Source: a virus (Duplodnaviria; Heunggongvirae; Uroviricota; Caudoviricetes). Taken from it: 40,068 nt of DNA. The stretch covers positions 1 to 40,068 of the IMG/VR virus record IMGVR_UViG_2778261349_000008. One strand, written 5' to 3'. Shown in pieces: positions 1 to 39,060 of this stretch; within the stretch, counting starts at the first letter, position 1, and each line of letters opens with the position of its first letter. The notes below the pieces were generated by a model. It was not told the origin of the DNA. It did no database searches and saw only the letters and a program-made list of their open reading frames with translations. A program made the position numbers and the translations under genes.

Positions 1-1248
1 ATGGCACTGAATATTCCATTCAGAAATGCGTACTATCGTTTTGCATCCAGTTACTCATTTCTCTTTTTTATTTCCTGGTCGCTGTGGTGGTCGTTATACG
101 CTATTTGGCTGAAAGGACATCTAGGGTTGACAGGGACGGAATTAGGTACACTTTATTCGGTCAACCAGTTTACCAGCATTCTATTTATGATGTTCTACGG
201 CATCGTTCAGGATAAACTCGGTCTGAAGAAACCGCTCATCTGGTGTATGAGTTTCATCCTGGTCTTGACCGGACCGTTTATGATTTACGTTTATGAACCG
301 TTACTGCAAAGCAATTTTTCTGTAGGTCTAATTCTGGGGGCGCTATTTTTTGGCTTGGGGTATCTGGCGGGATGCGGTTTGCTTGATAGCTTCACCGAAA
401 AAATGGCGCGAAATTTTCATTTCGAATATGGAACAGCGCGCGCCTGGGGATCTTTTGGCTATGCTATTGGCGCGTTCTTTGCCGGCATATTTTTTAGTAT
501 CAGTCCCCATATCAACTTCTGGTTGGTCTCGCTATTTGGCGCTGTATTTATGATGATCAACATGCGTTTTAAAGATAAGGATCACCAGTGTGTAGCGGCA
601 GATGCGGGAGGGGTAAAAAAAGAGGATTTTATCGCAGTTTTCAAGGATCGAAACTTCTGGGTTTTCGTCATATTTATTGTGGGGACGTGGTCTTTCTATA
701 ACATTTTTGATCAACAACTTTTTCCTGTCTTTTATGCAGGTTTATTCGAATCACACGATGTAGGAACGCGCCTGTATGGTTATCTCAACTCATTCCAGGT
801 GGTACTCGAAGCGCTGTGCATGGCGATTATTCCTTTCTTTGTGAATCGGGTAGGGCCAAAAAATGCATTACTTATCGGAGTTGTGATTATGGCGTTGCGT
901 ATCCTTTCCTGCGCGCTGTTCGTTAACCCCTGGATTATTTCATTAGTGAAGTTGTTACATGCCATTGAGGTTCCACTTTGTGTCATATCCGTCTTCAAAT
1001 ACAGCGTGGCAAACTTTGATAAGCGCCTGTCGTCGACGATCTTTCTGATTGGTTTTCAAATTGCCAGTTCGCTTGGGATTGTGCTGCTTTCAACGCCGAC
1101 TGGGATACTCTTTGACCACGCAGGCTACCAGACAGTTTTCTTCGCAATTTCGGGTATTGTCTGCCTGATGTTGCTATTTGGCATTTTCTTCTTGAGTAAA
1201 AAACGCGAGCAAATAGTTATGGAAACGCCTGTACCTTCAGCAATATAG
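1..1248 (+). CDS. cscB: Sucrose:H+ symporter, LacY-family oligosaccharide permease (host gene)
   Basis: 415-aa ORF with multiple hydrophobic segments; the N-terminus MALNIPFRNAYYRFASSYSFLFF and overall sequence match my memory of CscB and resemble LacY; lies outside the prophage attL. Confidence 0.75.
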   Translation: MALNIPFRNAYYRFASSYSFLFFISWSLWWSLYAIWLKGHLGLTGTELGTLYSVNQFTSILFMMFYGIVQDKLGLKKPLIWCMSFILVLTGPFMIYVYEPLLQSNFSVGLILGALFFGLGYLAGCGLLDSFTEKMARNFHFEYGTARAWGSFGYAIGAFFAGIFFSISPHINFWLVSLFGAVFMMINMRFKDKDHQCVAADAGGVKKEDFIAVFKDRNFWVFVIFIVGTWSFYNIFDQQLFPVFYAGLFESHDVGTRLYGYLNSFQVVLEALCMAIIPFFVNRVGPKNALLIGVVIMALRILSCALFVNPWIISLVKLLHAIEVPLCVISVFKYSVANFDKRLSSTIFLIGFQIASSLGIVLLSTPTGILFDHAGYQTVFFAISGIVCLMLLFGIFFLSKKREQIVMETPVPSAI

Positions 1249-1997: not shown

Positions 1998-2013
1998 GGA
2001 ATCGAACCTGCAA
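1998..2013. repeat. Second argW-derived 16-bp segment (ggaatcgaacctgcaa, T-arm region of the tRNA), about 20 bp upstream of the torI start
   Basis: Exact 16-bp match to 39000-39015 inside argW; in the intact tRNA this segment directly abuts the 15-bp core, here it is separated from the core by the torI gene. Confidence 0.7.
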
Positions 2014-15736: not shown

Positions 15737-15811
15737 GGGTCAGTCGTATAAAGGTCATTACGGAAGGCTGTTAACCTTCTTATCGTGGTTCGAGTCCACG
15801 CTGTCCCGCCA
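15737..15811 (+). tRNA. Phage-encoded tRNA candidate, anticodon GUU (Asn)
   Basis: Hand-folded cloverleaf: acceptor stem with one mismatch, GG in the D-loop, perfect 5-bp anticodon stem with loop cuGUUaa, T-arm cgtgg-TTCGAGT-ccacg, 3' CCA encoded. Confidence 0.5.
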
Positions 15812-15816
15812 AATAT

Positions 15817-15892
15817 GCTGGTTTATCTCCAATGGTAGAGCAGTCGCCTTGTAAGCGAATGGGTAGCGGTTCAAGTCCGTTAACCAGCACCA
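15817..15892 (+). tRNA. Phage-encoded tRNA candidate, anticodon UGU (Thr)
   Basis: Hand-folded cloverleaf: perfect 7-bp acceptor stem gctggtt/aaccagc, anticodon loop ctTGTaa, T-loop TTCAAGT, 3' CCA encoded. Confidence 0.55.
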
Positions 15893-32690: not shown

Positions 32691-33083
32691 TTAGCGGTTG
32701 ATGGTTGCTTTTTTCGGGTCATACCATCTCGGCCATTCTTTCAGGAATGGGAATGAGTCGGGTGCGTGGTTCTTTTTGTACGATTTAAGCAGCCTTAACC
32801 GCTCAATCGCACACTCATAAACCTCTTGTTGCCCTGTAGTCATCTCGGTCCATGAAAGGTGATCCATTGATAAGACAACGTTTTCAGCTTCTTTTATGAG
32901 GGCGTTTTTATTTCTCACCGCAGCAGCATGGCTGACAGAGCAATCCTGCCATATTCTTAAAAGCCAAATAGCTAAGCAGATGAAAAAAATGGTAGATAGC
33001 GATATATACACACCAACCTCTTTAGTTTTTCTAGTTACTTTGTCACGATAGGATATGCGAAATGATAAAACTAAATTGCGCAC
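32691..33083 (-). CDS. Hypothetical membrane-anchored protein (130 aa as listed; an alternative GTG start at about 33011 has an AAGAGG RBS)
   Basis: Single N-terminal hydrophobic segment YISLSTIFFICLAIWLLRIW; AT-rich; downstream of the mnt operon; no recognisable family. Confidence 0.5.
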   Translation of the reverse strand: MRNLVLSFRISYRDKVTRKTKEVGVYISLSTIFFICLAIWLLRIWQDCSVSHAAAVRNKNALIKEAENVVLSMDHLSWTEMTTGQQEVYECAIERLRLLKSYKKNHAPDSFPFLKEWPRWYDPKKATINR

Positions 33084-33271
33084 ATGATAACTCAGTAATA
33101 ATTGTTAATGAAAACATGATCACCTATATTGCACAAGGCGAAACAGGAAGCATAATCTGGTTTCATGAGAGTGATCACGCTTGGGTAAATCAAAGTCAAG
33201 AGGAAATACTTGAAATTATCAAAAATAACTATCTAAACGTTGCACACGACTCATCTATCCATTTTTCATAA
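33062..33271 (+). CDS. Hypothetical small acidic protein (69 aa) antisense to the mnt-operon cargo
   Basis: ATG with a possible AGGA RBS; overlaps the 3' end of the 33229-33810 gene and the listed start of the 32691-33083 gene. Confidence 0.3.
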   Translation: MIKLNCAHDNSVIIVNENMITYIAQGETGSIIWFHESDHAWVNQSQEEILEIIKNNYLNVAHDSSIHFS

Positions 33272-33810
33272 AATTGTATACCGAGATAGGCAAGAACAGA
33301 TGGATGTATATCAACAAGCTTTTCGCCAAGATGTTCTGTTGGAGGTGGATAATCTTTGCCTTGGTTTCTTACGGTTATAGGCATAGTTGTTGCTGGATGA
33401 AACTCAACTATCATAGGGTCGCCTTCGTATTTTGCTATTTTCCCTGTTGAATCAATGATTAACTCTTTAATATAATGGCTTCTTGCTCCCGGAAATGCCC
33501 CAAGAGTAGTATAAGGAGGTTCAAGTTTTGAGATTTCCATAGTGGAATGATGATCAGCATTTCTTGCTTGGTGAAGGTAAGCAAGTGTTTTGTCTGTTTT
33601 TCTAAGCATGAACTTTTGGTTGAAGTGGCTGCTAAATTTTCCACTAACCGGCTTTGTTGCACAGAGCAACTTACTGAAAGACTTTTCTATATGCCCAAGA
33701 CATTCTCGCCAGTGCATTTCAAAATCATCATGGTTTGTAGATGATTTCATCTGCTCTAGGCACTTTTTAGCTGCGATTATTTCTTTTTTTGCTGGGTTGT
33801 AATCGATCAT
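33229..33810 (-). CDS. Hypothetical protein (193 aa), AT-rich cargo gene translationally coupled to mnt
   Basis: ATG overlaps the mnt stop (ATGA); composition distinct from the flanking structural genes; no recognisable family. Confidence 0.65.
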   Translation of the reverse strand: MIDYNPAKKEIIAAKKCLEQMKSSTNHDDFEMHWRECLGHIEKSFSKLLCATKPVSGKFSSHFNQKFMLRKTDKTLAYLHQARNADHHSTMEISKLEPPYTTLGAFPGARSHYIKELIIDSTGKIAKYEGDPMIVEFHPATTMPITVRNQGKDYPPPTEHLGEKLVDIHPSVLAYLGIQFYEKWIDESCATFR

Positions 33811-34058
33811 TTTGCATTCTTGCCATACATGGTTTTCAGCGTCTCAACATCGTGTTCAAGATCTATCAATCGTGATGCTATAGTTGCAAGGTCTAGTGCT
33901 TGAATGTGTTTATTTTTTTCTGTCCACGCCTCAAGTGCCGCGACCATCTCAGCATTTAATGAACGAGAATTAGCCTCAGCCAGTTCAATAAGACGTTCCT
34001 TTATCTCTACAGGAAGCCTCAGATTCACTTGAGGGTTTTTGTACTTACGATCAGACAT
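33807..34058 (-). CDS. mnt: Mnt-like ribbon-helix-helix repressor
   Basis: 83-aa protein from the internal ATG (MSDRKYKNPQVNLRLPVEIKERLIELAEANSRSLNAEMVAAL) resembling the P22 Mnt N-terminal RHH domain; the listed ORF start is a GTG two codons upstream. Confidence 0.7.
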   Translation of the reverse strand: MSDRKYKNPQVNLRLPVEIKERLIELAEANSRSLNAEMVAALEAWTEKNKHIQALDLATIASRLIDLEHDVETLKTMYGKNAK

Positions 34059-34064
34059 CGGCAC

Positions 34065-35305: not shown

Positions 35306-35323
35306 CAGATAACCAACGCAACG

Positions 35324-35347
35324 ACCCAGCTTCGGCTGGGTTTTTTT
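35324..35347 (+). terminator. Rho-independent terminator after ant
   Basis: ACCCAGC-ttcg-GCTGGGT stem followed by a T7 run. Confidence 0.75.
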
Positions 35348-35405
35348 ATGCCCAAAATTCACCGTAGCCACGCTGCGGCGATTCCTTGCATCTGGAGCAA
35401 ATTAA

Positions 35406-37472
35406 ATGACAGACATTACAGCCAATGTGATCGTATCGATGCCTTCGCAACTCTTCACTATGGCGCGTTCTTTTAAAGCTGTAGCCAATGGAAAAATTTA
35501 TATCGGTAAAATTGACACTGACCCTGTAAATCCTGAAAACCAGATTCAGGTTTATGTGGAGAACGAAGACGGCTCTCACGTTCCCGTTTCGCAACCAATC
35601 ATCATTAACGCTGCTGGATATCCGGTATATAACGGACAGATTGCCAAATTTGTAACTGTGCAAGGCCATTCTATGGCTGTTTATGATGCATACGGTGCTC
35701 AGCAGTTTTATTTTCCTAATGTGCTGAAGTATGACCCTGATCAGCTAAGACAAGAATTAGAGAGTGGTATCGGAGCTTCAATAATAGGTTACGGATCATC
35801 GACAGTAAAAGATGCTCTTGATTCGGTTGTAAATAAACGTGTTTTGTACTTTTCCAGATTTGGCACACTGCAATCGCTGCAATCTTACATCACATCTAAC
35901 AACCTTAAAAACGTTGAAATTATTTTTGATCAGGTTGTGAATTTTGGCCCAGGAAGCGGAGGGTTGGGTACAATTGTTTCATTAAGCGACATGGACTATC
36001 TCGCCGTTAAGGGTTTGGTAATCAGAGACACTCTGCTTTATTCCGGCGCATTTGACCTGACGCGTGTGTTCGACCTGACGAATATCACCAATCTGGTGTT
36101 TGAAGTTGATGCCTCTTCCACACTTGAGTATGTCGGTGATGATAAGCGCGGACTGACCACACTGCGCCTGAATGGATGCGATAACTTCACATTTATCGGT
36201 AAGACTAGCAAGTGCTATCAGGGTTACGAATGCACTAATGTAAAAAATCTCTATGCTCGTAGTGTGAATAATGACACCCGCTACCCTCATCTTATGAGCA
36301 ATATAGGTTTGGTAGATATCAATACAAAAAACAATGGATGCCGCAGGGATTTCTTTCTTCAAAACAACTGCGCTGGCGGGCAAATCACAGTTGATGCCGT
36401 TGACACCCAGCAGGGTACGCCCATAAAGATGTATTTCTTTAACGGAAATATGGACAACCAGATATCTAATCTTGTTATAAAATATAAATATAGGAGCACA
36501 GGGAGATACACATTGCCATATCGTGTGGCTCCAATTTGGTTAGATTGGGGGTGGGATAGCTCGACAACAGAGACACTTATATCTGGTGTAATGCGTAATA
36601 TCACCATAGAGTATGATGTTGTAGGAGGCAATTGGGGTAGTGTCATTGGTACAACCAAACTAATAGATGAAACTATTGGGGATGGTGTAGCAAGAGGATA
36701 TGTTTATTCAAACATATTAATCAAAGGAAGAATTGAGTTAGGAGGAGGAGACTCCAATAATAAAGCGTGGGTATATAATTTTAACACTACCGATAACTGG
36801 AAAGATGGAGATGATATTAATGGATTTTACCTAAAAGACATTGTAATAAGAAAGTTAAATGGCGGTGAGGTGTATCTCAATACAAATCAATTAGCTGGGG
36901 CAGTGAAATCTAGTGGGCAAATAGTTTTGGATAATGTTTCTGCACCAGAGCTGATACTTTCAGCTCAAAGTTATGGCGATAAGGTCATGTTTAATAACTG
37001 CAATCTTTATGATTTCACAACTAAAAATGCTGTTAAAAATGCATATCAATCGCTTAAAACTACATGTACGATAAGAAAAGCATCAGGCGATGCCTCAAGC
37101 TTCCAAATTGGGTCAATGAGTGTATATAGAACAATCTGTTTCCTTTCGGTAGATATTAAAGCGACATCACCTTCATCAGGAAGTGTAAGTACATGGGGTG
37201 GTAATATAACTGGACAGTTGGTGCAAGGTACTACAGCAGGAAATGTAACATTAACTGGCAATACAAATACTTTGTACACAACAGGAACGGCATTAAATCC
37301 GTCTATTAGGTGCGAGACAGACGGCAGGATTATAATTACATTTGCAGGGTGGGAGTCGCTTGAAGCATTCATAACGTGCGATATTGCAATGGTTTACAAT
37401 GAATATTCAGGTGGATCTAATAACACAGTTCTCGGCCTGGTAAACAAGAAATTTGCTGTTGGAACTGTTTAA
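35406..37472 (+). CDS. Tailspike protein: P22/HK620-type N-terminal head-binding domain fused to a divergent beta-helix receptor-binding domain
   Basis: N-terminal ~110 aa ([46 protein letters not shown]...NVLKYDPDQ) match the conserved head-binding domain; the remaining ~575 aa do not resemble P22 or HK620 tailspikes as I recall them. Confidence 0.85.
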
Positions 37473-37666
37473 ATAGAAAGGTTTACTTATTGTAAATAAC
37501 AAATGTTTAACATTTCTTCTATCAGCTAATAATCAAAGGCATGAAGTCTATCATCCAAGTCTCAATCGATCGATGACTTGCTGTGGTTGATGAGACAAAA
37601 CTGATGCACACAAAGCTTTGCACTGGATTGCTAGACTTTGCGCTCTTCGATAATGGTTAAGGTGGA

Positions 37667-38824
37667 TCACTCCACCTTTTCATCAATCCAGTCCGCCCAC
37701 CACTGCATCATTTCTCTGCGCTTATCGAGATACTGAGCATGGTTGTAAATCCCGCGCACAGATCCGCCGTTGGCATGTGCCAGTTGCACTTCAATAGCGT
37801 CAGCAGGCCATTCGTGCTCGTTCATAATCGTGCTGAATTCATGCCTGAATCCGTGACCGCTTTCCAGACCCTCATAGCCGATTTGTTTGATCACAAGTAG
37901 CACCGCGTTCTCGCAGATTGGCTTCTTCTTATCGTTGCGTCCGGCAAAAACAAACTCTGATACTGGTTTAGTGATGGAGCTTAGCGTAGTGAGAAGTTCA
38001 ACCACCTGGTCCGACATCGGGACCACATGAATCTTGCGTCCCTTCATCACACTGGCGTCGATGGTGATAATCTTGTTTTCAAAATCGACGTTCTTCCATT
38101 GCATGGAACGAAGCTCTTTCGTTCTTAGGGCTGTGTAGCGTAAAACCTTGGTGGCAATGAGCGATACGATACTTCCTGAAAATGTTGCCAGTGCTTTGTT
38201 GAATTCCGGGATCTGGTCTGCAGGAAGAAACGGGAAGTTCTTCTTGCGGTATCCCTTCATGGCGTCAGCAAGGTCAGGTGCCGGGTTATATTTAGCCCTA
38301 CCAGTGACAATAGCGTAACGGAAAACCTCGCCGCATCTTCTGCGTGCTTTGTTGGCTCGCTCCATTGCGCCGCGATCTTCAAATCTGCGGATTACTTCCA
38401 GCAGTTGCATCGGCTCAATATCCTGAATTTCAAGGCCGCCGATGATAGGTAAAATGTCGTCATCAAACATTTTTGCAAGTTCATTCGCATACCCTACTGA
38501 CCAGACTTGCTTCTTGTGCTCGTACCATTCCTTGTAAATCGCACTAAAGGAATTGTTGTTAGACGAAGCCTTTTTCGCTTTTACCGGATCGATGCCAACC
38601 GAGATGTCTTTCCTCGCGGTCCATGCTTTATCTCTTGCCTCCTGCAAAGTCATTAGCGGATATTTTCCTACGGTCAGGATTTTCTCCTTACCGTCAATCT
38701 TGTAGCGAAGCTGCCATACCTTTTTACCTGACACAGGGACATAAAGGTACAGGCCATTACCATCGAGTAGGCGGTATGGTTTTTCTTTCGGCTTTGCTGC
38801 TTCAATCTGCTTAACGGTGAGCAT
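37667..38824 (-). CDS. intS: Tyrosine integrase, P4-type (KplE1/CPS-53 IntS-like)
   Basis: Matches my recollection of K-12 IntS from MLTVKQIEAAKPKEKPYRLLDGNGLYLYVPVSGKK...; C-terminal catalytic region with R...HxxR...Y; directly next to argW in the same orientation; the listed ORF start at 38860 is an upstream GTG. Confidence 0.85.
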   Translation of the reverse strand: MLTVKQIEAAKPKEKPYRLLDGNGLYLYVPVSGKKVWQLRYKIDGKEKILTVGKYPLMTLQEARDKAWTARKDISVGIDPVKAKKASSNNNSFSAIYKEWYEHKKQVWSVGYANELAKMFDDDILPIIGGLEIQDIEPMQLLEVIRRFEDRGAMERANKARRRCGEVFRYAIVTGRAKYNPAPDLADAMKGYRKKNFPFLPADQIPEFNKALATFSGSIVSLIATKVLRYTALRTKELRSMQWKNVDFENKIITIDASVMKGRKIHVVPMSDQVVELLTTLSSITKPVSEFVFAGRNDKKKPICENAVLLVIKQIGYEGLESGHGFRHEFSTIMNEHEWPADAIEVQLAHANGGSVRGIYNHAQYLDKRREMMQWWADWIDEKVE

Positions 38825-38985
38825 GGGTAAAAATCCGGTGGGTAAAATTATTTTATCCACTTTTTACCCGTCATGGAGTGCGGATGTCAACGATCTGACG
38901 CGAACCATTACGAACTGTGAATCTACGGAAGGCTTGATATTCAGGGGATTTTGCGGACTGGTACGGATGGGAGAGAACTGATAAA

Positions 38986-39000
38986 TGGTGTCCCCTGCAG
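38986..39000. repeat. attR core: 15-bp direct repeat (tggtgtcccctgcag), the 3' end of argW
   Basis: Identical to 1690-1704. Confidence 0.8.
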
Positions 39001-39060
39001 GAATCGAACCTGCAATTAGCCCTTAGGAGGGGCTCGTTATATCCATTTAACTAAGAGGAC
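38986..39060 (-). tRNA. argW: tRNA-Arg (anticodon CCU)
   Basis: Reverse complement reads GTCCTCTTAGTTAAATGGATATAACGAGCCCCTCCTAAGGGCTAATTGCAGGTTCGATTCCTGCAGGGGACACCA: 75 nt, cloverleaf with anticodon loop CTCCTAA and 3' CCA. Confidence 0.9.

Follow-up and report, generated by a model that had tools for sequence, protein, structure and literature searches.

We analyzed a stretch of DNA of 40,068 nucleotides (the window; IMG/VR record IMGVR_UViG_2778261349_000008) that is a complete P22-like (Sf6/HK620-type, Lederbergvirus-like) Escherichia coli prophage at argW, and we followed up its tailspike gene. This tailspike is probably a depolymerase, as yet putative, specific for O113-type O-antigen. 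The protein joins a conserved head-binding domain to a receptor module that is shared with other phages and prophages, the module has a confidently predicted beta-helical fold, and its E. coli carriers are associated with the O113 type. From these observations we infer that the O113 O-antigen is the receptor and that the spike is enzymatically active.

Head-binding domain, mosaic junction and receptor module

The original prediction, made by reading the sequence, described a chimeric tailspike whose first ~110 residues match the P22/HK620-type head-binding domain. Searches bore this out, since residues 1-113 matched the Pfam Head_binding profile over its full length (Table 1). Using tblastn against phage records, we found that the head domain is 99% identical to that of HZ41, 98% to CUS-3, 93% to HK620 and 89% to Sf6, and all four alignments stop at residues 118-119. 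Sequence matches in the PDB (Sf6 gp14, 7sg7; P22, 2xc1 and 8tvr; the P22 head-binding domain, 1lkt) span residue 1 to residues ~125-143 only. At the nucleotide level, 1,139 E. coli records from complete genomes match the gene, nearly all of them ending at nucleotides 350-357 (window ~35755-35762), and the next 735 nucleotides of the gene are present in only 8 complete E. coli genomes. Approached from the other side, similarity to members of the module family that sit on other adaptors starts at residues 112-120. The junction is a real mosaic joint and not a product of chance. P22-like phages are classically known to exchange receptor domains as modules at this junction. Base composition also changes along this part of the prophage: the structural genes have a GC content of 0.46-0.49, and the final 650 nucleotides of the tailspike gene one of 0.36-0.38.

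The remainder of the protein had been predicted not to resemble the P22, Sf6 or HK620 tailspikes. This held for the sequence and not for the fold class, which is predicted to be the same. Residues 120-688 gave no Pfam match, a Pfam scan of 33 family members was likewise empty, and no PDB match was obtained past residue ~143 with either the single sequence (phmmer) or a family profile; on these grounds the receptor domain is unlike those of P22, Sf6 and HK620 in sequence. The same division applies to CUS-3, whose head-binding domain is alike and whose receptor domain is not. Profiles of known beta-helix enzyme families in Pfam and CAZy (GH28, Pectate_lyase_3, Beta_helix) did not match the module. 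Residues 112-688 matched PHROG 34575 ("tail spike protein") with 1,198 bits, and an exhaustive HMMER search of 1.84 billion representative proteins recovered only 18 clusters of the module family at E < 0.001.

The closest named relative of residues 120-688 is orf00212 (orf212) of phage Ag3, which occupies the TSP3 position of this Agtrevirus (Ackermannviridae). It and its counterpart in phage Gloob carry the same module, at 70% identity over residues 133-681, and no receptor is assigned to Ag3 orf212 in the literature searched. Identity to the Ag3 module is uneven, at 90% over residues 145-300, 81% over residues 301-470 and 42-46% in the distal third. Whereas the window spike is mounted on a PF09008 adaptor, that of Ag3, a myovirus with four spikes, is mounted on PF18668. 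Ag3 and Gloob are the sole cultured phages with the module among 50,697 records. Beyond them, the module is borne on PF09008 in E. coli P22-like prophages, on PF18668 in siphovirus-like prophages of Enterobacter hormaechei, and on PF18668 plus a T7 tail-fiber N-terminus in 790-residue proteins. It is also found in a 960-residue protein of an SU10-like podovirus (70-kb contig) and in a 786-residue protein from an E. coli prophage whose internal proteins are T7_gp14-like. Apart from the Agtrevirus myoviruses, its bearers thus comprise podoviruses of the SU10-like and T7-like kinds as well as E. coli and E. hormaechei prophages. On every adaptor the common sequence starts at the linker LRxxL...GYGxxTVxxALD. 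By sequence comparison, the receptor module is horizontally acquired. Exchange of modules between prophages and Ackermannviridae spikes has been published (PMC10791037, PMC8432352).

The family is conserved to different degrees along its length. The core (residues 145-470), which includes two invariant motifs, is 75-99% identical throughout the family. The distal third (residues 471-688) falls into two classes: within the window class identity is 61-95% (88-95% between the window and proteins P0036 and P0037, 61-72% for P0039, P0040 and P0042), and the Ag3 class is 38-49% identical to the window class. The distal third of the window was matched in 3 of 5,426 complete E. coli genomes. As judged from the alignments, the module is itself mosaic, with a conserved core and a variable distal third. 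Several strains (LR-50, JML83, GV963 and 88817(10j)) hold two different module variants within one genome.

Association of the module with O113-type hosts

A prophage with a single spike is expected to carry one that fits the O-antigen of its host, a logic already used in published work (PMC10408124). In that study, Pas et al. (2023) found that the spikes of Lederbergvirus prophages track the O serogroup of the host and that modules move between phage genera. Our analysis shares this principle and differs in the serogroup, as O113 is not included among the 14 serogroups of their catalogue. No characterized O113 spike was found in the literature searched. As a probe for O113 we used the wzx-glycosyltransferase-wzy segment of strain LR-50, whose flippase and polymerase are annotated by PGAP as "O113 family". 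The segment was present in 25 of 5,426 complete E. coli genomes and the module core in 8, seven of which were also O113 or O113-like; the nominal Fisher p of 1.4e-16 overstates independence, since the seven O113 carriers are not phylogenetically independent. These seven are strain 10, JNE120393, JNE131328, LR-50, PSJ-16, PKF8 and P276M, the last having a 92%-identical variant of the O113 cluster. Their origins span several countries and continents, with human isolates, ground beef and a kite among the sources; they carry three spike variants and have the prophage at two or more insertion sites (sbcB-dacD and argW).

The eighth genome, EC23HZZ201, carries the module with an O10 cluster. Its spike lies in an IS1-truncated argW remnant with the order spike-gtrABC-intS (locus L007, 1616714-1626874). 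LR-50 has the same kind of argW remnant (locus L019, 1367037-1373800), and GtrA, GtrB and EvgS are identical in the two strains. The gtr-bearing remnant of EC23HZZ201 looks like a relic that has outlived a switch of O-antigen. Carriers of the window class with a known type are O113 in two of two cases, namely LR-50 and the strain named "E. coli O113:H4", the source of a protein with 95% identity. LR-50 also holds the only full-length close relative of the gene among the complete genomes, at 92% nucleotide identity over the whole gene.

A second genus pointed in the same direction. The O113 Wzy family comprises only 9 clusters among 5.8 billion proteins, and its named members outside E. coli come from E. 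hormaechei and the Enterobacter cloacae complex (47-49% identity) and from Citrobacter (P0204). In the E. hormaechei locus that we compared (GCA_018596985.1, JAHEUT010000002.1, 500026-521207; locus L013), Wzy is 47% identical and the genes follow the O113 order: galF, wzx, GT2, wzy, GT1, acetyltransferase, GT, GT4, epimerase and gnd (GT, glycosyltransferase). An O113-like wzy and a spike of the module family occur together in at least five E. hormaechei genomes, in which the two were matched through chromosome length (4,985,541, 4,632,074 and 4,698,753) or a shared locus-tag prefix (LGR80, SS00, LZ286). We take this co-occurrence as corroboration of the O113 link and not as proof. The proposal that the C-terminal domain sets the O-antigen receptor, and with it the host range, thus gains support by association: seven of the eight E. 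coli carriers, the O113:H4 strain and the E. hormaechei genomes all have O113-type clusters or serotype.

Every other temperate carrier that we inspected has O-antigen conversion genes directly after the spike, whereas the 194-bp gap between the tailspike and integrase genes of the window (37473..37666) holds neither gtrABC nor an acyltransferase gene. In LR-50, strain 10, EC23HZZ201 and E. hormaechei these genes are gtrABC; in PSJ-16 and the P0039 prophage there is an acyltransferase gene. These differences between carriers, and the contrast between a distal third with two classes at 38-49% identity and the far more uniform core, favor a modified target. In such a scheme the spike would recognize a glucosylated or differently O-acetylated O113-derived antigen, or a related non-O113 type, residues 471-688 would set the fine specificity, and the host range would differ from that of the Ag3-class copies. 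LR-50 fits this picture, as it combines a remnant bearing a class-A spike and gtrABC with a full prophage bearing a window-class spike and a second, different gtrC; several further strains likewise hold two module variants. However, O113 E. coli and E. hormaechei each have both distal-third classes, and among the inspected carriers we found no clean pairing between the class and the type of neighboring conversion gene. The divergence may also be neutral, as the C-terminal part of the P22 and HK620 tailspikes serves mainly for trimerization. A modified or related target seems rather unlikely, and the distal third could be either a neutral trimerization scaffold or a means of fine tuning to modified O113.

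Predicted fold, candidate active site and proposed mechanism

A full-length model built on a shallow alignment of 24 sequences, none below 54% identity to the query, reached a pLDDT (predicted local distance difference test score) of 65, gave uninformative Foldseek template modeling (TM) scores of 0.2-0.3, and was replaced. The model that we adopted covers residues 113-688 alone, as a monomer, with the alignment widened to homologues down to 20% identity. It has a pLDDT of 90.9 and a predicted TM score (pTM) of 0.86. Its secondary structure consists of a helical cap (residues ~114-165), some 13 coils that recur every 20-30 residues (residues ~169-530) and a C-terminal domain (Table 1). According to this confident prediction, the module is a pectin-lyase-like right-handed parallel beta-helix followed by a beta-sandwich, that is, the fold class of the P22, Sf6 and HK620 spikes. 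Lederbergvirus-type spikes are homotrimers with a parallel beta-helix; for the window spike the beta-helix is predicted from a monomer model.

The best structural neighbors of the module include hydrolases and lyases alike, at a sequence identity of only 8-14%. GH28 polygalacturonases, the RbmB lyase and GH110 enzymes are 10-14% identical to it, do not match it by profile, and have catalytic residues that cannot be aligned with it by sequence. In an alignment of 33 sequences, five residues (D208, R292, Y293, R314 and D469) never vary and five more (E275, D315, D333, D404 and D426) hardly do. We placed these residues on rungs by means of the secondary-structure string only, which puts E275, R292/Y293 and R313-D315 at the starts of three consecutive coils. 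These positions may mark the substrate groove, and an active site would then use the conserved carboxylates and arginines E275, R292, Y293, R314, D315 and D333 at the turns of consecutive rungs. According to a review, the O113 O-antigen contains one N-acetylglucosamine (GlcNAc), as the initial sugar, and one N-acetylgalactosamine (GalNAc). The chain might be cut by hydrolysis or by beta-elimination, as the structural neighbors are of both kinds and no known catalytic motif is detectable.

The module might also only bind the O-antigen, or modify it without cleaving the chain, being neither glycosidase nor lyase. The missing catalytic motif bears on this reading, as does the presence of polysaccharide-cleaving enzymes among the structural neighbors, and we consider it quite improbable. 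It is very unlikely that the O113 link is an artefact of lineage and the receptor another glycan (capsule or K antigen, colanic acid, enterobacterial common antigen): the O113 carriers are few and possibly related and PHROG 8280 ("colanic acid degradation") matched residues 1-246, but that match lies mostly in the head-binding domain, the association with O113-type clusters holds across two genera and is broken only in the decayed remnant of an O10 genome, whose flanking proteins are identical to those in LR-50, and O-antigen conversion genes adjoin the spike in other carriers. A colanic acid target taken from PHROG 8280 was considered separately and set aside as not being evidence; residues 120-260 occur in 3 of 50,697 phage records (Ag3 twice, and Gloob).

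Besides the relatedness of the carriers, several points weigh against an O113-specific depolymerase. All of the receptor evidence is correlative. The O113 association is drawn from other carriers and not from the window's own host, in which the O-antigen locus lies ~350 kb from argW, and the closest match to the gene among complete E. coli genomes is 92% identical in nucleotides. The distal third of the window differs from most O113-associated copies; only LR-50 and the O113:H4 protein have a close one. Shigella boydii was the isolation host of Ag3, and none of the E. coli strains tested was infected by this phage, although it has four spikes and the tested serotypes are unstated. Sequence searches (Pfam, PDB profile, 33 members) revealed no catalytic motif typical of any known family of glycoside hydrolases or lyases. 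Finally, the model is monomeric, and the trimer is assumed.

With an O113-specific depolymerase still the probable reading, the spike would work as follows. By homology with the in situ structures of Sf6 and P22, residues 1-113 would dock the spike trimer on the tail hub, and the short linker that follows is the recombination joint. The beta-helix module (residues ~145-688) would bind the long O-antigen chains of O113-type lipopolysaccharide and most likely cleave them along the groove of the helix. Cleavage would give processive access and carry the phage particle to the outer membrane, where the tail needle would then trigger ejection.

The prophage setting and implications for P22-like phages

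The coordinates of the gene, its domains and its neighbors are collected in Table 1.

Table 1. Features of the tailspike gene and its surroundings in the window
Feature	Coordinates	Strand	Basis
Antirepressor (Ant), in the immI region 5' of the spike, as in P22	34376..35305	+	PF10547 + PF10548
Terminator-like hairpin between antirepressor and tailspike genes	35323..35342	+	8-pair stem, then T run
Ribosome-binding site GGAG, 10 nt 5' of the tailspike ATG	35393..35396	+	read from sequence
Tailspike gene, 688 residues + stop, ATG start	35406..37472	+	open reading frame list
Head-binding (particle attachment) domain, residues 1-113	35406..35744	+	PF09008, E 1.6e-66
Linker/neck, residues 113-144, with the recombination junction at ~35755-35765	35742..35837	+	where similarities end/begin
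Conserved module core, residues 145-470: N-terminal cap + first ~10 beta-helix rungs	35838..36815	+	family identity, pLDDT > 90
Variable distal third, residues 471-688: last beta-helix rungs + C-terminal domain, GC 0.36-0.38	36816..37469	+	
Predicted C-terminal beta-sandwich, residues 549-666, eight strands after the beta-helix	37050..37403	+	model mbb394706096c
Prophage integrase	37667..38860	-	PF00589, PF22022, PF13356
tRNA-Arg(CCT), argW, attachment site	38986..39060	-	ARAGORN

The tailspike reading frame is intact, and identical 688-residue proteins occur in at least 10 further E. coli assemblies, so that the allele appears maintained rather than decaying. Phage homology begins at position 1690. 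Identity to Sf6 is ~98% in the structural genes. A 15-bp core at attL (1690-1704) is an exact repeat of attR (38986-39000), the 3' end of argW. The tailspike gene is the last late gene, after an immI-type region made up of two Arc-like genes and the antirepressor gene and beside the integrase and attachment site, which is the placement typical of Lederbergvirus.

Several observations concern other parts of the window. A 415-residue open reading frame at 1..1248 (+) matches a "sucrose permease" of induced-phage records and appears to be host flank. A second match to argW, of 16 bp (39000-39015), lies at 1998..2013, ~300 bp inside attL. The interior of the prophage holds a pair of tRNA genes, for Asn(GTT) and Thr(TGT), at 15737..15892 (+). 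A low-GC stretch (0.36-0.40, ~32750-34000) that separates the DNA-transfer gene from the immI region has two open reading frames on the minus strand. The first, of 130 residues (32691..33083), has a hydrophobic segment and belongs to PHROG 10450, of unknown function. The second, of 193 residues (33229..33810), overlaps the stop codon of an Arc/Mnt-like gene (33807..34064, -); it matched nothing in Pfam or PADLOC and matched PHROG 23516, of unknown function. As P22 has sieA at this position, the frame could be a moron or a gene for superinfection exclusion.

The tailspike is a phage protein of a familiar kind that has a probable new specificity and belongs to a fold family without a solved representative. 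A bolder proposal is that the module founds an undescribed polysaccharide-degrading family for the O113-type O-antigens of E. coli and E. hormaechei, whose distal third tunes the enzyme to glucosylated or acetylated forms and lets a second P22-like phage superinfect a converted lysogen. Its basis is the lack of a Pfam or CAZy signature and of any solved relative above 14% identity, and the superinfection idea derives from two-spike genomes such as LR-50; as a whole we regard this proposal as unlikely.

O113 (e.g., O113:H21) is a clinically relevant serogroup of Shiga toxin-producing E. coli. If the proposed specificity is true, the spike and its relatives would be usable for O113 detection, for engineering of phage host range and for decolonization. 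It would also predict an E. coli O113 or E. hormaechei host, so far unrecognized, for one of the Ag3 spikes, and the beta-helix depolymerases would gain a new sequence family with this module. The value of the finding would be practical and not conceptual, as a candidate O113 reagent and a predictor of host range.
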